Positions 54,215-64,000 of a stretch of 64,000 bases of DNA are shown here, piece by piece. Below the pieces are notes generated by a model. That model worked only from the letters and a program-made list of their open reading frames with translations. It searched no databases and was not told where the DNA came from. The number at the start of each line of letters is the position of its first letter. Within the stretch, counting starts at the first letter, position 1. Position numbers and translations under genes: made by a program. This DNA is from an uncultured delta proteobacterium. GTDB lineage: Bacteria; Desulfobacterota; Binatia; UBA9968. Where the stretch lies: NCBI GenBank assembly GCA_963737905.1, contig CAVTUQ010000002.1:128001-192000 (forward strand). The letters are read 5' to 3'.

Positions 54215-54990
54215 TTATCCGGACTCCAGCATGGCTACTAACAGCATCAACCCAACACCCACCGCTATCGCAATGAGTTGTATGATAGATTTTAACAGAT
54301 CCGATTCCTTGTTAAGTTCGGGCACCAGATCAGAGCCCGCGATATAGATAAAGCCGCCGGCTGCTAAAGGGAGCATCAACGAAGAAAAATGCTCTACTCT
54401 GGAACTCACCAGGAGAGCGACAATGGTCCCCAAGATCGCAAACAGAGCTGATATGAAATTAAAAAAGATGGCTCTTGCTTTTGAGAAACCGGCGTACAGT
54501 AAGACGAAGAAGTTACCCAGTTCGTGTGGGATTTCATGAAAGATAACAGCAGTGGTAGTCGCGATGCCAACGGGAAGACTTACCAAATACGACGCTCCAA
54601 TAATCATCCCGTCGATAAAATTGTGGACGCCATCAGCGAGCAAATTCATATAGCCGACCGGACGAATGGGATTGTTGGCCTCCAATGTGTGCTGATGTCT
54701 CCAGAGCAGAAATTTCTCTAAAATAAAGAATGCGAATATGCCGGCCAAAAGATAAAGCGAGGCTTCGATATTTGCGTCAAATTTTGCAAACGCCTGTGGT
54801 AGTAAATGGATGAATGCATCGCCGAATAAACTGCCGACGGCGAGGCTGACCATAACAAAAATTATCCTTTTCAGCGTCTGTTCTCTGATTGAGATGAAGG
54901 CGATACCCACCAGTGAAAGAAGGCTCACCAAGACGACGCTGACCAGGCTATAAAACCATGCGACCGGCGTAGCTTCCGCCTTTTCATCCA
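54215..54990 (-). CDS. ZIP family metal transporter (start uncertain)
   Basis: GDAFIHLLP, DGVHNFIDG, HEIPHELG, FIYIAGSDL. Confidence 0.9.
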
Positions 54991-56432
54991 GTGAACAGAT
55001 CGCGCACGACTTCTTTAACCGAATCGGTATAGGCCAGTCCGAGATTGGTCGCGGCGGGCGTGGGAACGGCGCGTTGAATCCGTCTCTCCCACAGCACAGT
55101 CCCATCATCAATCCGTATGAGCTTGAAATCAACGAAGACTCGCATGAACTTTTGCGACTCACCTTCCCAACGCCAGATCTCGCTGACGAAGACCAAGCCT
55201 GAAAGTTTTCCCTCACGAGCCATCCGAACAGCCCCATTCATGTCGGCGGGGAAAGCCGGAAAGCGCGGATCCATTTCTTCGGGAAGGGTAACTAGGTAAC
55301 CGTTTTGCTCCAACCCCTTGCGCAAGTCCTCACGCAACAAATCCATCACGCTCTGTCGGTAGTCGGAGGAAATCTTTCCTGCCATCTCTGCAAGGGAGCG
55401 TAGCGGATTTGTCGCCGGTAAAAGTAAAGGCAAGGCGGTGCTGTTCTTCACTTTTGCCAACCAAACTTGCTCTTTCTTAATGTCTTTCACTTGCGGCACC
55501 GGCGCAGAAGGCGTTCTCGTGGCGCAACTGGTAACCGCTCCGCCAACAAAAATCAGCATCAACAGCGCCGCACCTATTTTGGTTGGGACGCGGCTTAATC
55601 CGTAGGCTAGAAAGATCAGACAGCAGCCTAGGGTCACATCGGTGGGCCCCAAAGGAAGGTCCAAACGCACGGAGCTGTAGAAACCCAAAAAGGCCATAAT
55701 CACTCCCAGTATGGACGATAGTATCAAAAAAGAGCTCATCCGGCTCACCAAGGGCCGCGCCGCGAGCGCCGGCAGCACCAAGAACCCAAAAATCAACTGA
55801 GGCCCCGCCATGATCACTCCAAAAGCGATGATCAATCCGGCGAGAAGATAGAGCAACACATCCCAGATCACTTGACGCCCTTTCAAAAGAAACGCCAAAT
55901 CACGATCGAAAGAGGTCAAGAGAAATTCCCGGCGAAATATCAGCATCGCTACAAATACGACCCCAAAGACACCGATCAGTAGCCTCAGTTCGCCTTTGGA
56001 CAGCGCGATGACCTCACCCTTCAAGAGACTGAGAACTTCGATCTGGCCGGCTGGATTGAAGACTAAAAAGAGGATGGTCAATGCTCCGGCGAAAGCATAG
56101 GCAGCGGCCAGGCGACCTTCCGGGAAGCCTTTCCCGCGCTGTTCCAGATAGCCGAGTAACCCCATTCCTAAAAAAGTAAACACAAGCGAGCCGACCATAG
56201 CAATGCCGCGTTCACTCTCTCTAAGCTGTGGCAAGAGACCAGCCTGCTGCAACCAGAAAGTAAAAGAGACTCCGGCAGCGGCGATTTCCGGGAGCGTCAG
56301 TCCAAGGAATATCGTGCGCCGAAGGACCAGGTAAGAACCGATCAGCGGACACACTAACCCCATGATCATGGTACCTACGAGCGCAGGAAAAAGCAGATAA
56401 GAAGGATTCACAATTTCAAACAAAGTGCTCAT
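54984..56432 (-). CDS. ZnuB-like metal ABC permease fused to a C-terminal lipoprotein-like domain
   Basis: IGSYLVLRR, SFDRDLA, FGFLVLPA, LDLPLGP; then GAVTSC and a ~175-aa soluble domain in the same frame. Confidence 0.8.
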   Translation of the reverse strand: MSTLFEIVNPSYLLFPALVGTMIMGLVCPLIGSYLVLRRTIFLGLTLPEIAAAGVSFTFWLQQAGLLPQLRESERGIAMVGSLVFTFLGMGLLGYLEQRGKGFPEGRLAAAYAFAGALTILFLVFNPAGQIEVLSLLKGEVIALSKGELRLLIGVFGVVFVAMLIFRREFLLTSFDRDLAFLLKGRQVIWDVLLYLLAGLIIAFGVIMAGPQLIFGFLVLPALAARPLVSRMSSFLILSSILGVIMAFLGFYSSVRLDLPLGPTDVTLGCCLIFLAYGLSRVPTKIGAALLMLIFVGGAVTSCATRTPSAPVPQVKDIKKEQVWLAKVKNSTALPLLLPATNPLRSLAEMAGKISSDYRQSVMDLLREDLRKGLEQNGYLVTLPEEMDPRFPAFPADMNGAVRMAREGKLSGLVFVSEIWRWEGESQKFMRVFVDFKLIRIDDGTVLWERRIQRAVPTPAATNLGLAYTDSVKEVVRDLFTG

Positions 56433-57160
56433 GGCTGGTCACTCACTTTCTTCTCTTGCAACCAGATTTTTCCCTTGTCCACGCGAACGATTTTGTCGGC
56501 AACTCGCTGCACCATTTCAAGGTCGTGACTGGAAAAGAATAACGCCAACCCATTAACTCGGGTCAGGTGAATTAAAAGTTCCGCGATGGTCTTACGAGAT
56601 TCCTCATCCACACCGGACAGCGGCTCGTCTAGAATCATGATCTTCGGCTTGACCATCAAGGCGCGAGCAATAAGAATCCGCTGCTTTTGCCCGCCGGAGC
56701 ACGCAAAAAAAGATTTCGTCACAAGGTGGCGCATGCCGACTTGCTCTAAAACCTGGCTGGTTCTTTCCTTTTCTTCAGAGGGAAGGAATTGATACGAGCG
56801 CACGCGGCCGTAGGCTCCCATCTCCACGATCTCTCTCACGCTCAAGGGAAAGTGAGGATCGAGCGCGGCGCTTTGAGGCACATAGCCAAATTCCGATAAT
56901 GCGCAGTGTCGAGAAATAGAGCCGCCGAGAATCGGCAGAAGTCCGAGGATAGCGCGGAAAAGCGTCGTCTTGCCCGAACCGTTCGGACCGGCCACGCCAA
57001 TAAGGTCGCCTGGAGAAATCGTCACGTTTACGCCGTGAAGAACCGGCGTCGAATCGTAACCCAAGCTGACATCCTGAAGCGAAACCAGAGGGAGAGGCTC
57101 ATCTTTCGATACTCTCCCTCCGGCACTTTGTATTCCGTCGATATCTTGTCCCAACTTCAT
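56429..57160 (-). CDS. ZnuC-like metal ABC ATPase
   Basis: GPNGSGKT, GYVPQ, SGGQKQR, LDEP, SHDL. Confidence 0.9.
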   Translation of the reverse strand: MKLGQDIDGIQSAGGRVSKDEPLPLVSLQDVSLGYDSTPVLHGVNVTISPGDLIGVAGPNGSGKTTLFRAILGLLPILGGSISRHCALSEFGYVPQSAALDPHFPLSVREIVEMGAYGRVRSYQFLPSEEKERTSQVLEQVGMRHLVTKSFFACSGGQKQRILIARALMVKPKIMILDEPLSGVDEESRKTIAELLIHLTRVNGLALFFSSHDLEMVQRVADKIVRVDKGKIWLQEKKVSDQP

Positions 57161-57164
57161 GCCT

Positions 57165-58095
57165 CTAACTGACCGACTGAACTAAGGTACGTACAGTATA
57201 ATCAATCCATTTAATATAGGTATCGGTTTCCGGCTGGTTTCCTCCGCCGCTGTAAAGACGCAGAACCTTGATGCCTGTTTCGGCAGAAATTTGCTCGGGG
57301 AACCGCGGATTCTGAGCACCATAAATTAGCAACTGGGCTTTATCTTGCTTGATCTGCTTGTACCAACTGCACTATATGATTTGGCGTCGGCTCAATTCCA
57401 GGCTTTAACTCAATGCTCCCTATCCGCTTCATGCCAAATCGATCAGCAAAATAAATCCATTCCGGATGATACTCGACATATTTGACCCCCCGTAGAGGAA
57501 CCGCCATTTTTTCCCAGCGCGCAATCCAGCTATCCAGCTCCGCCATATAGGCTTTTAGATTTTTATCAAAGGCTTGCTGATGCTGGGGATAATTACGCGA
57601 GAGGCCGTCGGCGATGTTCTTCGCGACGATTTTCGCTCTCACAGGGTCCAAGAGATAGTGAGGATTTCCCTTCGGGTGAAGGTCGCCTTCCGACCGGTCC
57701 ACGAGTGTGGGAGCCTCGAGCACCGGAACTCCCACGGAACAATCTATATAGCCTGGCCGCCCTAGAAGAATTTTAGGATTATTTGCCACCTCCAAAAGCG
57801 CTGGGAGCCAGGAATGTTCGTCATCCAAGCCAATCAAGACCAGCACGTCTGCTCGGTTTAGCCTGGGTACAAAGCTCGGTTTCATGGGAACACCGTGAGG
57901 ATCCTCGACTCCCGTCGCTAGACTATCTGCAGTCACCAACTCTTTACCGATCTGCCGGGTAATATCAGCCAAATCTGGCAACGTCGCCACGACACGGATT
58001 TGCTGCGCGAAGACTAAACCGGTTTGCAGCCAAACCAATGCGAGCGATATGAAAAACACCTTCCAGTTTTTACTTCTCAACAGTTTCATCTTCAT
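57165..58095 (-). CDS. ZnuA/TroA-like metal-binding protein; indel at ~57360
   Basis: EDPH, GDLHPKGNPHYLLDP, YHPEW, KPGIEPTP; C-terminus continues in another frame to TAG at 57165. Confidence 0.85.
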
Positions 58096-58119: not shown

Positions 58120-59416
58120 CTAACGGGTGAGGAACCCGTGGGTATGAGCGCCGATCACAGTCGTCCATTGGAGAAAAAATTGATTGCCTTTCTCGGCTTT
58201 GTCCGCTTTAAAATTATTGCTCAAATAGCTGTATTGAAAACGCAGTCGGTTAAATTCGCTGACGTTCCAGGTCAAGTACGGCGAATAGCTGAGCGTCCTC
58301 TGGCCTGAGTTATCAACCACCGGAGCGTAATCGAAGAGAAATCCAGTGGCCCAATTCTTGTTCAACTTGAGATCGACGTAACTGTAGCCGCCATAGGATT
58401 GTTGGCGCTTACCCACAGTGCGCGTTTCCAAAATACTCGGGTCATCCTCATTTGGAACCTCGATGTCAAACGGGAAAGCGCTCGCTGTTGGCATAGAATT
58501 CACTCCCCCACGTCAAACCCTGATAAACCGAGCTGCCGAGCGGTTGGTAACGATAAGTCAGATCAACACCGTTGAGCATCCGAGCGCCGCCAGAGGCATC
58601 ACCTGCGAGTCGCACCGAAGGCGTGTAGGCAAGGCTCGTACCTAATTCAATACTATGATTATCCGTGAGATCAAAATAAGTATTGAGCCTTCCGAGATAA
58701 GTAAACTGACTCCCGGACCGCAGCACTGTATTGTCGATTCGATCGTTGCCCTCTCCCATCTTGTTCATTGCGCCGAATGTCGCTCTCATGAAAAAAGGCG
58801 TCGGAAAAAGATAATACAATTCCGCCCCGTCCGCCTGCGTTTCGCCTCCCACCATCCGCTCGATAGAAAGCGGCTCGTTAACAAAAGGCAGCTCATGCTC
58901 ATGGTACTTGGGAAAGCGCCCGAAATCGGCCAAGAAACGACCTCCTTTGGCCGTCAGGTTATACGGGAGAGAAGTGGTGATCGCCGCGGCTTCATCTATC
59001 TCTACGCCATCCTTTGTACCGTTGATAAAACTATACATCCTCGCAAACGGATCTATTGAAGCCGCAATGCCGAACTCAGCACTGCGAAAATCAAAAAGGC
59101 CTCCGGCTGTGCCGCGCTTTTGGACATTGGCATCGAGCACAAGACCCATGGAGGGATTGAGCGCGCTGGGCGCGCTCTGAACCGCCTGGACCGATTTTTC
59201 CACCTGGCCCAGCCTAGCGGAGCTGGAAGATTTTTCCTTTTCCAACTGGTCAATTCGATCCAAAGCGTTCTTCAATTGATTCTGCATTTCCCCCAGTTGT
59301 TTCTTAAGTGCCTGAGTCGCATCTTCCTGTGACAGTCCCACTCTCGGAAACAAGATCACCAAGCATAATACAAATAACGCGGATGTGGTTTGCAATCTAG
59401 TTTGACATAAATCCAT
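58120..59416 (-). CDS. Outer-membrane beta-barrel/porin associated with metal uptake; indel at ~58470
   Basis: Signal peptide, coiled coil, IDPF, YHEHELPF, SEFNRLRFQY, C-terminal IGAHTHGF. Confidence 0.75.
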
Positions 59417-59498
59417 AAATCCACCCCCTACAAAAACAGGTATCTACCCCTCCCAACCAGGGAAGGGAAAATTAATAAATTTACGCGTGAAGGAAGAA

Positions 59499-59801
59499 TT
59501 ACAGAGGGAGTGAAGATGGAGGCGCGCGAACCGCGGGAGACTTTATTGAAAGCGCACCAAAAACTTGAGCTTCATGAGTCGTAATGGAGAAAATCTGAAG
59601 AGAGGGACTGTGCTCAGCTAGCGCTGAAGTTAATCCTGCGTGGATTCGCGTTCCATGATAGCAGCTACATTCATTGCCGACTCGTGCGGTCGAATTGAAA
59701 AAATGGAGGTGTAAAGGCAGAAAGAAAACAAAGAACAGGACTATTGCCGCGACGACACGGCGAGTGGTTGGACCCTTCTCCTTGAAAAATCGAAAGGACA
59801 C
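59499..59801 (-). CDS. RAPP-motif leader/arrest peptide A (100 aa, DUF2946/CutF-like logic)
   Basis: Basic N-terminus, hydrophobic segment, LPLHLH, CSC, C-terminal RAPP (59517-59528); paralog at 62823..63113. Confidence 0.75.
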   Translation of the reverse strand: MSFRFFKEKGPTTRRVVAAIVLFFVFFLPLHLHFFNSTARVGNECSCYHGTRIHAGLTSALAEHSPSLQIFSITTHEAQVFGALSIKSPAVRAPPSSLPL

Positions 59802-59808
59802 GGTCCCA

Positions 59809-59837
59809 AGGCTAGTCAAGCGGTAGCGGGTTGTCAA
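59809..59837 (-). promoter_or_regulatory. Sigma70 promoter of leader A
   Basis: TTGACA-17nt-TAGCCT, 7 nt before the in-frame GTG. Confidence 0.65.
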
Positions 59838-59963: not shown

Positions 59964-60577
59964 TCAGCTTCCGGGTTTTCTCGACTCCAGTTGTGCAAAT
60001 ACCTCTTTCATGACCGTCTCGGCTACGAAGATGTTCGCTTGGCCGGTTAGCACGATGCCGTAAAGCGGAACGGGCCGCGAGGGACGGTTGACCTGCCAGA
60101 GTATCGCGCTCGTTTTGGGATCGACCATGATCACGTCTAAAGCGACGATCACGCCGTCGGCTTTCATTCCCCTCTCACTCGGCGTCGGTTCCCAGCGCCG
60201 CACTTCGATGTACAGGGCAGCCGCGTCAAGCCGCGCCTGTTCCACAATTTGCGCCGCCATCTGCGGGCTAGTCGGCACACGATCTTTGGTTGACAGCTTT
60301 ACAATGCTGGGTTCAACGACGTCGAAACGCTTCGCCGCGAGCTGGGCACGAGCCTGCTGGGCGAGCAGATCTTCGATCGTTCTCGACGGTAGACCCAGGA
60401 GTTCGCTCTCTGTTGCAGTGGGGCGCGTCTCGGCCGCGCCAAGCCGATAGGGCGGCAGAACCACGATCCGGCTAACATTTTGGGGAAGTCGAGTGACGAC
60501 TATTTGCGTGCACCCAACGCTCCGAGCAACAAGCTGAGAAGTCCGATTCGACCGATCAACGTTTTTTGTTTGCTCAT
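59964..60577 (-). CDS. Lipoprotein resembling the domain fused to the ZnuB-like permease; indel at ~60513
   Basis: Adding one G gives MSKQKTLIGRIGLLSLLLGALGC (lipobox) in frame with ORF 59964..60629. Confidence 0.7.
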
Positions 60578-60612
60578 ATTGGTATTCTCTTTGTCCATTT
60601 GCCCGGGAACTT

Positions 60613-61467
60613 CTACCTCCACGCGCCAACTATAGAAGACGCCGATGCGTCATTTGTCCGAGAGTTCCCAAGCTGAAAACGTCTTCAATCGTGCGCAGAA
60701 GGCTGTAGTGGTTGTAGGCGGTTTTGGAGACGCTACCGGAGAGGACCGAATCCCCTATTAGAGCCGTGAAGACGCGGTTGCTCGGATCATTGTCTTCTGC
60801 CTCGTCGAACGTGATGACAAACAACAACCCGTTCATGAAGGCAGAATTCTTCAGCCGAGGGCCAAAGGCCTTCGCTAACCAGCGATCAGCGAAGGCGGGT
60901 CCGGTGTGGTGCCCATCGTTTCTCTGGTCGGGGATATACAAAGAATAATCCGGTAGATTCCCGCTCGCCGCGTCGGAAGTGAGGGCGGATGCGTCAACAA
61001 TCTTGGCGCAGCGAGATGGATCTTTCTGTATGTTCTTGAAGCTCAGAAATGGCACATGTTTGCGTACGTAGTCGCCCGATCGATCTCCGAGAAAACAAAG
61101 TCCGGGATAAGCTTCGGCGTAAACCTTCCATGTCTTACCCTTTGCTTCTAGGAGATCACCGATATGGCGCAAGTTTAGGCTCACCGGTCCGTTAGACGTC
61201 ACACCGGCCGTGGTTCCTGCGGTCAGCGCTATATAGTTCGGCAGCGAGGGATGTGCCTCGGCATAGAATTCACTCAGGAGTGCGCCGCTTTTGGCCAAGT
61301 TGCCAAGGAAAGGCTGGACCAGAGCATCTCTATAATTGGCGTTCTCCAAGATACTGAACATTGCTTGCTCAAACCGCGTCAAAGAGCGGATCCTTCGGCT
61401 CAGCTCCATGCGCCAAAGCGATGGGGAGAAGTAAAACGGCAGCAATCCCAACCAAGTGTCTTTTCAT
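60613..61467 (-). CDS. Secreted phosphoesterase (acid phosphatase/PLC family); indels near both ends
   Basis: ILENANY, HPSLPNYIAL, YVRKHVPF, NDGH, ITFDE, YNHYSLLRTIE. Confidence 0.85.
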
Positions 61468-61487
61468 GATAACGGCTAGCGTTAACT

Positions 61488-62039
61488 CTAATGACTCAGG
61501 CCTCCGCGATACTTTTGCCACGCGGCAATCCCCGCTTGCGCTGCCTTCTCGTCAATGCCGGACGGCAAGCCCGACACGCCGACGGCGCCGACCAGGCGGT
61601 TGTTAACAATGAGAGGCAGTCCGCCGGAAACGATGTAGACTTGGCCCGGCCACATATTCATGATGCCGTAGAATCGGTTGGGGGCGGTCGTCATGAGTTC
61701 CGCTACCGCCGCGCTTGGCTGTCGGGAAATGATCGATGTGAATGCTTTGCCCTTGGCCTGATGCTCCGAGTTGAACGAGGTGCCGTCCATCCGATCCACC
61801 GAGACCACGTGCCCCCCATCATCCAGCACAGCGACCGCCATGCGCATTTTCAAGTTCCGGGCATGAGCAACCGCGCCCTCAATGATGATGCGCGCTTCCG
61901 CCAGCGGAATCGAAGATGACGACACGATGGGATTTGACGGCGGAGCGGTTGGCTCGGCCGCTGAAGCAACGCCACTGTTACCGGCCGATCCGAAAATCAG
62001 TAACAGACCAAGTAACGGCAAAAACCGAAAACTTTTCAT
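61488..62039 (-). CDS. GlcG/HbpS family heme-binding protein, secreted
   Basis: AVAVLDDGG...RMDG...KAFTS...GGLP...GAVGVSG; AGGAGG RBS. Confidence 0.85.
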   Translation of the reverse strand: MKSFRFLPLLGLLLIFGSAGNSGVASAAEPTAPPSNPIVSSSSIPLAEARIIIEGAVAHARNLKMRMAVAVLDDGGHVVSVDRMDGTSFNSEHQAKGKAFTSIISRQPSAAVAELMTTAPNRFYGIMNMWPGQVYIVSGGLPLIVNNRLVGAVGVSGLPSGIDEKAAQAGIAAWQKYRGGLSH

Positions 62040-62117
62040 AGCACGCCTCCTTTTTGAACAAAGTCTTGAATAGGAGAAAACCTTGGGGATCGCCATCGTA
62101 CACCCTATTTTCTTTCT

Positions 62118-62612
62118 TTACGTACTGCCGTTGGCTTTCGCTACATTTACGACACGGCGCGCGCCCAAAAACCTCTTGGCGTACCACGGCTGGTTGAGAT
62201 CAGTGATGATCACCCGCCCGGCCTTTTTCTCGGCATGTAAGAATTGATGATGGCCCATATAGACACCTACATGAGTAGGTGTGTTACCCTCAGATGAAAA
62301 AAACACCAAGTCGCCAGTTTCCAAACTGTCCATCGGAACTTCCTCGCCGGCCTCAATTTGGTCACGCGAAGTCCGTGGCAGCTCGATGTGCAGTTTAGCG
62401 AAAATCATTTTGACTAAACCCGAGCAGTCCGCGCCCCGACGCTCCGACATTCCTCCCCAGCGATACGGTAGCCCCAGAAAGGTACGAGCCGCTTTCGCTA
62501 ATTTGTAACGAACCGCCTGAGACACGGGAGTGGACTCCTCCGGAAAACAAACCGCCTTGGAAAGAAGCAGGCTCAAAACAAGAAATAAAACCATTATGTA
62601 TAGTCGTTCCAT
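62118..62612 (-). CDS. NlpC/P60 (C40) peptidase
   Basis: LGLPYRWGG, DCSGLV, LPRTS, GDLVFF, HVGVY, FLHA. Confidence 0.92.
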   Translation of the reverse strand: MERLYIMVLFLVLSLLLSKAVCFPEESTPVSQAVRYKLAKAARTFLGLPYRWGGMSERRGADCSGLVKMIFAKLHIELPRTSRDQIEAGEEVPMDSLETGDLVFFSSEGNTPTHVGVYMGHHQFLHAEKKAGRVIITDLNQPWYAKRFLGARRVVNVAKANGST

Positions 62613-62822
62613 TAAACCTCCGTATACAATTTTGCCTGCGGCTTATTGATATCCTGCTGATATGAATCAGCGTGACTCGAACAGCCGCGGTGCAAGCATC
62701 AAAAGCTATGTCGAAGTAGATCCCCGGCTGAGCTGACAGGCCAGGGGCTTGGCCGTTGAATTGTAGCCTCTCCCTAAATTGTCTTCGGGAGAACAAGTAA
62801 CGGCCTTGATGTAGTTACGATG

Positions 62823-63113
62823 CTAGAGAATAGGAGGTGCGCGGGCTAATTCAGACTCGATGGTAACTTGAACAGGAGCTTCCGTTATGCGGACGATTAA
62901 GAACGACACCCCAGCGGAAGGACCGAGAATAGCAGCTGCTGGAGCCAAGTCCATCTGAACGCGACCGCCGTAACAGCAGCAAGCGCAGTCCTCGCTCACC
63001 TTTGGGTTAGCGGGAAAATGAATATGAAGAGGCAGGAAGAAGACGAACAACAAGATCGCCGCGCTTAAAAGACGGCTGACCTTGTGCGACTTCTTTAGGC
63101 AGAGAATAAACAC
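62823..63113 (-). CDS. RAPP-motif leader/arrest peptide B (96 aa)
   Basis: Hydrophobic segment, LPLHIH, CACCC, C-terminal RAPP (62832-62843). Confidence 0.75.
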   Translation of the reverse strand: MFILCLKKSHKVSRLLSAAILLFVFFLPLHIHFPANPKVSEDCACCCYGGRVQMDLAPAAAILGPSAGVSFLIVRITEAPVQVTIESELARAPPIL

Positions 63114-63120
63114 GCCCTTG

Positions 63121-63149
63121 AACCTAAACAATGCGTTCTTCGATGTCAA
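63121..63149 (-). promoter_or_regulatory. Sigma70 promoter of leader B
   Basis: TTGACA-17nt-TAGGTT, 7 nt before the in-frame GTG. Confidence 0.65.
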
Positions 63150-63447
63150 TGAAAAAACCAAAACGATCGGCCGACGCATTCACTGGCGGCGTTTATTGCG
63201 AAGGCAGCTCAAAATCACGTTTTGGCGGGGGCTCAATATCGTCCTGGTCCCTCGCCATGAAATCTGAGAAACAGAGATGCTCGGTAGTGAAATGAGCCGC
63301 TTTATCGGCAGATACCTGGACTGGAGCCAAGTCCCATTTTCGGCAACCGAGTGCCATGGGAGGCCGTACCACGGATTACATTCTTTAGGAACGTGCGCCC
63401 TCGCCGTGACGGGATGAAAGGGAAGCAAAGTCGAGGCAGCGGCACAG

Positions 63448-63522: not shown

Positions 63523-63907
63523 ATGGACAGATTGTCAAAGATACTCGGAGCCGGCTTTATGGCATCATCTTTACTGTTTCTCAGTACCTCGGCCTTTGCC
63601 GCGGACCGCGGAAATCAAGGGCGATTTAAAGGAGCTACAGCAGGATCACAAAGAATTGCACCAGGACAATAAAGCGATTCGGGGGGATCGCCGGGAGTCG
63701 CGCGGCGATTTCACAGAGCTTAAAGGAGACTGAAACGAATTCCGCGGGGACTTGAAAAACGGCGCGGGCGACACGAGATCGCCCAGGATCGAACAGGAAT
63801 CCGCGGCGATCGAAAAGAGATCAAAGGCGATAGGCACGCTCAGAAAGATCACCGGGAACGTCCATGGCGACAGACGCGAGCTGCGACGCGATATCAGCGA
63901 CTCGTAA
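63523..63907 (+). CDS. Secreted charged heptad-repeat protein, multiply frameshifted
   Basis: Signal peptide MDRLSKILGAGFMASSLLFLSTSAFA, then EIKGDLK-ELQQDHK-ELHQDNK-AIRGDRR-type repeats in shifting frames. Confidence 0.55.
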
Positions 63908-64000
63908 AGCAAGCAATTAGGCTCTGGCTTCATTGTCTTTAGTGGCCGCCGCCTCCTCATGTCTTGGCAGCCATCTCTCGGCTTTCGCACGTGGTATAAT

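Follow-up and report, generated by a model that had tools for sequence, protein, structure and literature searches.

Why would a cell wall peptidase gene and, farther along the same strand, a metal uptake operon each be headed by a small open reading frame (ORF) that ends in nearly the same way? This question is raised by a 64,000-nucleotide (nt) stretch of contig CAVTUQ010000002.1 from an uncultured delta proteobacterium of the class Binatia (the window, to which all coordinates below refer; features lie on its minus strand unless stated otherwise). The two ORFs, here denoted leaders A and B, carry the motif Arg-Ala-Pro-Pro (RAPP) a few residues from their C-termini. We put at roughly 60% the probability that both are cis-acting regulatory arrest leaders of the same kind as CruR and CutF.

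Two paralogous leaders

Leader A (62823-63113) starts with the GTG codon at 63113 and consists of 96 codons and a stop, within a longest ORF of 118 amino acids (aa; 62823-63179); leader B (59499-59801; GTG at 59801) consists of 100 codons and a stop, within a longest ORF of 112 aa (59499-59837). In leader A, a hydrophobic anchor (approximately 63027-63071) is followed by an HxH motif (63018-63026), the Cys cluster CACCC (62973-62987) and RAPP (62832-62843), after which come Ile, Leu and the stop codon. The counterparts in leader B are HxH at 59703-59711, CSC at 59661-59669 and RAPP at 59517-59528, with a tail of five residues (SSLPL) compared to the two (IL) of leader A. The Pro pair is accordingly located 3-7 residues from the end, and the leaders are followed by spacers of 210 and 82 nt, respectively. 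In the numbering of the longest ORFs, the common segment FVFFLPLH(I/L)HF places LHIHF at residue 51 of A and LHLHF at residue 42 of B, the Cys clusters are C65ACCC69 and C57SC59, RAPP is at residues 113 and 104, and the distance from the second His to the Arg is exactly 58 residues in both proteins.

A preliminary description of this DNA had pointed out the shared segment, the Cys clusters and the 58-residue spacing, and every detail that we checked holds for both ORFs. Its view that the two are paralogous RAPP leaders is likewise supported, by 38% identity (BLASTP, E 6e-15) together with the shared motifs and spacing. The sole difference seen in the metal motif is the additional Cys of leader A (CxCC(C) as opposed to CxC). 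The 6.7-Mb genome holds A and B and no other copies of the family. The combination of motifs and spacing exceeds chance because it recurs across a family of approximately 139 representative clusters, for most of which gene callers use the equivalent start codon.

A family defined by seven residues and a fixed tether

A word search retrieved 18 relatives of the leaders, and a profile search of 1.84 billion representative proteins (E <= 0.001) yielded 139 matches, nearly all of which are approximately 100 aa long and align through to the RAPP end; one match, a Cys-rich repeat protein of 2,495 aa, was set aside. Among 155 short proteins, the C-terminal motif is RAPP in 119, RGPP in 22, RSPP in three and RDPP in one. 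Most of the 10 proteins that lack RxPP are visibly truncated or frame-shifted, and one has LGPP in place of RGPP. Of the 145 RxPP proteins, 144 have a tail of 2-8 residues between the motif and the stop, and one has a tail of 14.

The preliminary description proposed that selection acts on the length of the segment preceding RAPP and named variable spacing among homologs as the outcome that would speak against this. The comparison of homologs shows constant spacing and supports selection on length. The distance from HxH to Arg is 57 residues in 29, 58 in 91 and 59 in 19 of 141 proteins (57-59 in 139), and that from the last motif Cys to Arg is 44 residues in 135 of 140. The same 44 residues are found in all 84 unique copies (106 complete copies) from 89 fetched loci and the window, with a search pattern that permitted 38-50 residues. 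The Cys-to-RAPP distance of 44 residues is thus a sharper invariant than the 58 residues that separate HxH from RAPP.

Alongside the invariant HxH, the Cys motif takes the form CxC in 121 and CxCC in 17 of 140 proteins, and the only invariant columns in an alignment of 91 sequences are H31, H33, C45, C47, R92, P94 and P95. The tether between the Cys motif and RxPP is fixed in length, poorly conserved in sequence and predicted to be coil. The codons for the Arg and the prolines vary freely across the copies while the residues stay constant; therefore conservation acts at the protein level, which marks a genuine family under selection for its amino acids. A hydrophobic 15-mer (Kyte-Doolittle score >= 2.0) precedes HxH in 87 of the 91 sequences, and the net charge upstream of the hydrophobic segment is positive in 84. 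An AlphaFold2 model (pLDDT 70.9, pTM 0.29) has a helix at residues 12-27 and coil after the anchor; the anchor is called from hydropathy, charge and this model, the quality of which is too low to support a search by fold. Members of the family are found in Candidatus Binatia, in 'Deltaproteobacteria' metagenome-assembled genomes, in Syntrophobacteraceae and in Candidatus Acidiferrales; within the class of the window, four of 61 sampled genomes, this one included, carry the family.

Searches against Pfam and NCBIfam gave nothing meaningful for A or B. In a search of the host genome with the PF11162 (DUF2946) profile, the family to which CruR and CutF belong, A and B are absent at E <= 10, and only two stop-ridden frames elsewhere match. 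A search for DUF2946 in 301 genomes of the phylum produced eight weak matches, three of which resemble real CxxC-45-RAPP peptides, and a word search seeded with one weak DUF2946 peptide found only that peptide. For leader B, a protein atlas returned unnamed clusters and DUF2607 (score 0.93, 161 shared features); a single member among 115 matches DUF2607 (E 0.017).

Genomic context

To survey the genes under the leaders, the proteins of the window were compared to the related loci (numbered with the prefix L) by tblastn. From 82 unique leaders outside the window, nine with less than 400 nt of downstream sequence were dropped, which left 73. In 53 of these, the leader is followed by a gene for a porin-like outer-membrane protein and then by ZnuA-, ZnuC- and ZnuB-type genes, often with a ZIP transporter. 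The other contexts are NlpC/P60 (6), a MerC-like permease (5), a second ZnuA-type gene (5) and nothing recognised (4). The leader is the first gene of the unit and is separated from the next gene by 48-224 nt, mostly 80-110 nt upstream of the porin-like gene. None of the 73 contexts contains a Sec or YidC gene downstream.

The contexts separate the two types of leaders: A-type leaders head NlpC/P60 genes, and B-type leaders head the porin-like gene with ZnuA/C/B and ZIP. In the window, the two units form a tandem in the order leader A, nlpC, HbpS-like, phosphoesterase, lipoprotein-like ORF, leader B, porin-like, ZnuA/C/B, ZIP. L025, L033, L052 and L081 have this order except that the HbpS-like and phosphoesterase genes are missing; in L099 these two genes and any detectable lipoprotein-like ORF are all absent. 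Duplicated sensors tuned to different metals, to redox state or to secretion capacity had been proposed in the preliminary description, and of these options metal is far better supported than secretion capacity because a zinc-type uptake operon follows leader B, as it does most leaders of the family. A RiPP (ribosomally synthesized and post-translationally modified peptide) or metallophore precursor was also considered and rejected, given that no modification enzyme is encoded in any of the 73 contexts.

Further arrangements of the family were observed along the way. In L036, L040, L042, L046, L068, L072, L075, L078, L079 and L101, a third leader copy with the tail VSL or FLLL heads a second ZnuA-type gene located 118-594 nt away, so that up to three family leaders are present per zinc-type locus; except in L101, the third copy lies on the opposite strand, approximately 0.5-1 kb upstream of the main leader. 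In L010, L029, L062, L073 and L085/L086, a MerC-family permease (PF03203; E 4e-22 for L010) follows a leader whose tail has two residues, with NlpC/P60 next in some of these loci.

Promoters and an apparent leaderless start

Each leader is preceded by a close match to a sigma-70-type promoter. For leader A (63121-63149), TTGACA (63149..63144) is followed after 17 nt by TAGGTT (63126..63121), with 7 nt to the GTG; for leader B (59809-59837), TTGACA (59837..59832) and TAGCCT (59814..59809) are likewise 17 nt apart, with 7 nt to the GTG. The family layout, TTGACN, 17 or 18 nt, T[AC]NNNN, 5-7 nt and an in-frame [AG]TG, is present in 72 of the 80 unique leaders with enough upstream sequence, and the two leaders are the only exact matches to the promoter pattern on the minus strand between 57000 and 64000. 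Because the start codon lies 5-7 nt after the -10 box, this layout suggests that the leader mRNAs are leaderless. An alternative in which the upstream 'LTS..FRF' stretch is coding was rejected: this stretch coincides with the TTGACA/TAGGTT promoter, its distance from the start codon varies between 6 and 7 nt, and several loci have in-frame stops upstream. With the upstream stretch assigned to the promoter, the true products would be the 96-aa and 100-aa forms of A and B.

A promoter of its own for nlpC was named in the preliminary description as a finding that would tell against leader-dependent expression. Two simple scans of the A-nlpC spacer, one with a generic and one with the family pattern, detected none, a result that is not decisive. 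By eye, no Zur-like palindrome was seen in the promoter listing, although no search aimed at Zur boxes was made. The 87%-complete genome encodes one Fur-family protein detectable at E <= 1e-5 (contig C2:96137-96478, 32 kb before the window), so that no separate Zur is evident.

Pairing of the leader end with the next ribosome-binding site

The 210-nt spacer between leader A and nlpC (62613-62822) is structured, with a minimum free energy (MFE) of -84.1 kcal/mol (z -3.27; none of 200 shuffled sequences folds as well). The nlpC Shine-Dalgarno (SD) sequence, GGAGGU (62616-62621), pairs with ACCUCC (62833-62838) in the Ala-Pro-Pro codons of RAPP with a predicted probability of 1.0; this complementarity, noted already from the bare sequence, is real and forms the closing helix of the MFE fold, together with CCG paired to UGG of the start region. 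The spacer downstream of leader B measures 82 nt (59417-59498). Here the MFE fold joins the second Pro codon and the tail codons to the SD and AUG of the porin-like gene; the two strands of this helix enclose an internal CCCUUCCC/GGGAGGGG hairpin.

Across the family, 67 unique leader/next-gene pairs were compared, and in 54 of them the SD is predicted to pair with the 3' end of the leader (probability > 0.5). The mean pairing is 0.75 as opposed to 0.48 for synonymous recodings (20 for each pair; Wilcoxon p 6e-9). For the 53 porin-type pairs, cognate duplexes average -20.0 kcal/mol compared to -17.8 kcal/mol for non-cognate ones, and none of 5000 permutations reaches the observed mean. The helix between the Pro codons and the SD is retained in a consensus built from six A-type spacers (C-G in 6/6, U-A in 4/6, C-G in 6/6, C-G in 6/6). 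The Pro codons are not conserved; the first is CCT in 35 of 84 copies, against a usage of 15% in the genome of the window. In the 45 nt that follow the stop codon, the composition across 83 leaders is C 27%, G 17% and T 36%.

Comparison with known arrest peptides

CruR (Bp2923) of Bordetella pertussis and CutF of Rhodobacter capsulatus, both DUF2946 proteins, are the closest parallels. In CruR, a CxxC motif is separated by 45 residues (+/- 1-2) from a RAPP located three residues before the end, and lengthening of the tether by five residues abolishes copper control (PMC9426467); arrest has been observed in vitro with Pro codons in the P and A sites (PMC12992588), and the geometry of RAP/P arrest has been solved (PMC10951233). 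In CutF, the nascent exported chain senses periplasmic copper (PMC9973294).

The leaders described here share with CruR their place as the small first gene of a metal uptake operon, the N-terminal export signal, a Cys motif, a predicted unstructured chain, a length-conserved tether (45 residues in CruR, 44 here), RAPP located 2-5 residues before the stop and a long spacer. Unlike CruR, the family lacks a PF11162 match, and the candidate ligands are HxH with CxC or CxCC rather than CxxC. The neighbours are porin, ZnuABC, ZIP and NlpC/P60 genes instead of a TonB copper receptor, the anti-SD resides in the last codons of the leader itself whereas CruR works through Rho, the layout appears leaderless, and the hosts are not Proteobacteria but Acidiferrales and Binatia-like and 'delta' metagenome-assembled genomes. 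The parallels with CutF would be the use of a nascent exported peptide as a metal sensor and a stall at a C-terminal Pro motif that opens an RNA helix shielding the next ribosome-binding site. CutF-like proteins are known to form clusters whose motifs consist of Cys, of His or of both, and copper specificity does not extend to every cluster (PMC9973294; bioRxiv 10.1101/2025.02.05.636593). CutF itself combines CxxxC with PPP, requires EF-P and, at high copper, turns on a detoxifying oxidase, in contrast to the RxPP leaders of uptake and cell wall enzyme genes considered here.

ApdA, ApdP and ApcA, as well as SecM and MifM, likewise combine the RAP/P module near the C-terminus with a localisation signal at the N-terminus, and act in cis on the downstream gene through RNA structure (PMC10951233; PMC7897499, PMC10987492). 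Those peptides are encoded upstream of Sec or YidC genes and are released by translocation force, whereas the present leaders have neither gene downstream and possess a conserved site of two His and two Cys (H2C2). With respect to the gene content, the nearest precedent is the Zur regulon of Vibrio cholerae, in which the peptidoglycan hydrolase ShyB is co-regulated with zinc acquisition (PMC6381278). ShyB is an M23 metallo-endopeptidase under transcriptional control by Zur, as opposed to a cysteine peptidase for which translational control is proposed here; a comparable link between hydrolase and zinc uptake would explain the presence of an NlpC/P60 unit under a leader of the same family.

A proposed mechanism

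From the observed motifs, spacing, contexts, in silico pairing and promoter layout, we infer the arrest, the metal, the compartment in which it is sensed and the sign of the response. Each leader would be transcribed constitutively from its own sigma-70-type promoter and probably translated from a leaderless mRNA. The chain would insert its N-in membrane anchor, followed by HxH, approximately 11 residues, CxC, the 44-residue tether and RxPP, and the ribosome would arrest at RAP/P, as established for ApdA, ApdP and CruR. At the arrest, the Cys pair would be 46-48 residues and HxH approximately 60-62 residues from the peptidyl-transferase centre; the H2C2 site as a whole, at 46-61 residues, would be immediately beyond the exit tunnel or inside the translocon. 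The arrested ribosome is predicted to cover the codons of RAPP and of the tail, which in its absence pair with the SD and start codon of the next gene; since the first Pro codon in the P site puts the anti-SD inside the ribosome footprint, the stall should free the SD. Exposure of the ribosome-binding site would switch on nlpC behind leader A, and the porin/ZnuABC/ZIP unit behind leader B. Protection from Rho, as in CruR, may contribute, the region after the stop being C-rich and G-poor.

Binding of Zn(II) at the His2Cys2 site would change the pull on the chain and hence the length of the arrest. For uptake genes, bound metal would lead to release and an OFF state, and scarce metal to long arrest and an ON state; the NlpC/P60 unit could provide a metal-independent stand-in for zinc-dependent wall hydrolases. 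Our confidence in zinc and in this sign of the response is lower than that in arrest regulation as such. A bolder proposal, which we advance as speculative, is that this family constitutes the first zinc-responsive nascent-chain sensor: a leaderless, anchored His2Cys2 peptide that might gauge zinc, possibly periplasmic, and through RAPP arrest exert translational control over a zinc-sparing locus (porin, ZnuABC, ZIP, MerC-like permease and NlpC/P60), with two or three paralogous leaders per locus, different in Cys content and tail, that could set different thresholds, either as a substitute for Zur or in addition to it.

Evidence against and alternative explanations

Many observations weigh against the interpretation of A and B as metal-responsive arrest leaders, or against parts of it. 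Homology to CruR and CutF is unproven, because PF11162 matches neither A nor B at E <= 1, only four of 115 family members match it weakly (best E 0.11), and an hhalign comparison of the family to three weak DUF2946 proteins aligns 22 C-terminal columns (probability 79.5%); the element would work like CruR and CutF, and common descent is something that the comparison cannot show. Zinc as the substrate is the best guess from the neighbours alone: the L013 orthologues score highest on the NCBIfam models AztC/AztA/AztB and ZupT, in every case below the cut-off, with Mn-type models close (for the binding protein, 91 bits on AztC compared to 73 on MntC, both far below cut-offs). The proposed sign of the response, argued by analogy, is complicated by CruR and CutF responding in opposite senses. 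The AlphaFold2 model has no folded metal site, with the low confidence scores given above. In the window itself, the porin-like (58120-59416), ZnuA (57165-58095) and phosphoesterase (60630-61521) genes and the lipoprotein-like ORF (59964-60629) are frame-split, and a search for RNA runs with the locus found none.

The RNA evidence is uneven as well. The B fold is not exceptional among shuffled sequences (z -1.2; 25 of 200 as good), the A-type helix has no compensatory change among the six spacers, and RNAalifold found no consensus structure for 35 B-type spacers. SD pairing fails in 13 of the 67 pairs, including the MerC-type L010, L062 and L085 (0.0-0.01) and the A-type L052 (0.01) and L081 (0.0); the fourth MerC-type pair, L029, does pair (0.74), and some of the other failures come from mis-chosen start codons. 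The recoded controls still pair at 0.48, so that much of the pairing follows from C/U-rich Pro, Ser and Leu codons, and the loci are related in a way that the tests ignore, so that the p-values overstate the signal.

The pairing of the recoded controls is in line with one alternative, in which the product is a small, stable membrane protein that binds metal on the periplasmic side, such as a metallochaperone passing Zn to the porin/ZnuA system. RxPP would then be a structural motif of the C-terminus, and the SD pairing a by-product of the Pro, Ser and Leu codons; the invariant H2C2 set and the anchor are what such a protein would need. We regard this as the least probable of the alternatives, because real sequences pair more than recodings and non-cognate pairs, RxPP is invariant and held 2-8 residues from the stop in 144 of 145 proteins, the tether is fixed in length yet variable in sequence and predicted to be coil, and the gene always comes first in the unit, before a spacer of 48-224 nt. 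Moreover, CruR and CutF are barely detectable as stable proteins (PMC9426467). Only slightly less doubtful is a monitor of secretion or membrane insertion, in which force from insertion of the anchor by SRP, SecYEG or YidC releases the arrest, as in SecM, MifM, VemP, ApdA and ApdP, and the His and Cys residues serve some other role. The conserved N-in anchor, the fixed tether that suits a tunnel-plus-translocon geometry, the exported appearance of all downstream products and the precedent of RAPP peptides with localisation signals that monitor Sec or YidC (PMC7897499, PMC10987492) all agree with it. It leaves unexplained why, outside RxPP, only two His and two Cys are invariant and why metal importers, and no Sec or YidC gene in 73 contexts, are the dominant neighbours; furthermore, the signal peptide of CruR is dispensable for regulation (PMC9426467).

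The remaining alternative, unlikely although less so than the other two, keeps the arrest leader and changes its output: the stalled ribosome would block Rho loading, as in CruR, with SD masking secondary, or metal would prolong the arrest, as in CutF, resulting in induction by metal excess. Rho-dependent termination is the route used by CruR (PMC9426467), the composition after the stop codon is of the appropriate kind, CutF demonstrates the opposite sign, and three of the four MerC-type pairs lack SD pairing. The short spacers of the porin genes and the location of the anti-SD within the ribosome footprint argue for translational output instead, and induction of uptake genes under metal excess would be illogical. 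On balance, regulation by arrest with unmasking of the SD is the reading that we prefer for A and B.

What is new

A switch in which an arrest leader senses a metal is already published, for CruR (PMC9426467) and CutF (PMC9973294). What appears to be new is a family outside DUF2946 in which HxH and CxC form the site, the tether measures 44 residues, the targets are zinc-type and NlpC/P60 genes, the leader's own last codons contain the anti-SD and the start is apparently leaderless. The word zinc is absent from PMC12992588, and zinc, ZnuA, NlpC and leaderless are absent from the main text of PMC9973294, the supplementary context tables of which may list such neighbours. A search of full-text literature for arrest peptides or RAPP together with zinc or ZnuA returned nothing relevant, with the same reservation that supplements may hold such contexts.

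Metal-sensing arrest peptides have so far been shown experimentally for copper only (CruR, CutF), and the present family would extend the principle to zinc. It also amounts to a natural experiment on fixed tether length, which bears on the choice between the tunnel alone and the tunnel with the translocon. The tandem of leaders, one heading a cell wall cysteine peptidase unit and the other an uptake operon, hints that translation arrest governs a small regulon here. Finally, a leaderless start combined with an anti-SD in the last codons of the leader would make for a compact switch that is easily tested or reused.

Genes of the window and state of the locus

Downstream of leader A, the NlpC/P60 cysteine peptidase gene (62118-62612; PF00877, E 5e-30; ATG at 62610-62612) is followed by an HbpS/GlcG-like gene (61488-62096; PF03928, E 3e-30) in a cassette that is absent in related strains, and by a phosphoesterase-family gene (60630-61521) whose body (60630-61451) matches PF04185 (E 2e-31; profile positions 107-355 of 356) and whose signal-like N-terminus (61369-61521) is in another frame. 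Then comes a 221-aa lipoprotein-like ORF (59964-60629) that belongs to no family and is kept between nlpC and leader B in related loci. The three enzyme or domain assignments of the preliminary description are confirmed by Pfam, and its 'lipoprotein' remains an ORF without a family. Export signals, which the preliminary description ascribed to all four genes downstream of leader A, were judged by eye; the phosphoesterase and the 221-aa ORF each have a signal-like N-terminus that is out of frame with the body.

Downstream of leader B, the porin-like gene (58120-59416) consists of two ORFs in the window (58466-59416 and 58120-58503) and of a single ORF of 416-438 aa in related loci; it matches no Pfam family, and the nearest named atlas clusters, Porin_O_P, are a lead only. 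The block from ZnuA to ZIP (54215-58095), assigned by Pfam, comprises a ZnuA-type binding protein (57340-58095, with a C-terminal piece at 57165-57332), an ABC ATPase (56429-57160; ABC_tran), an ABC-3 permease (54984-56432; ABC-3) and a ZIP transporter (54215-55237; Zip). The permease carries an extra C-terminal domain of approximately 200 residues that has no Pfam match, is kept in orthologues (482 aa in L013) and shows no similarity to the 221-aa lipoprotein-like ORF.

Compared to related contigs from soil populations, the window has indels of 1-2 nt at 58471 (1 nt, in the porin-like gene), at 60512, 60518 and 60598 (in the 221-aa ORF), at 60655, and at 61387 and 61394 (in the phosphoesterase gene); none of those listed falls inside leader A or B. 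The frame splits may be assembly errors, or strain differences that include strain-specific decay. In contigs from two runs, 60547 is followed by 65 other letters and then by 62088, so that the HbpS-like and phosphoesterase genes are skipped; this variant corresponds to the gene order of loci such as L025, and the two genes look like a dispensable cassette. Just upstream of the promoter region of leader A, at 63523-63735 on the plus strand and 63646-63999 on the minus strand, a small ORF has a signal-like N-terminus and charged repeats (..KGDLKELQQDHKELHQDNKAIRGDRRESRGDFTELKGD).

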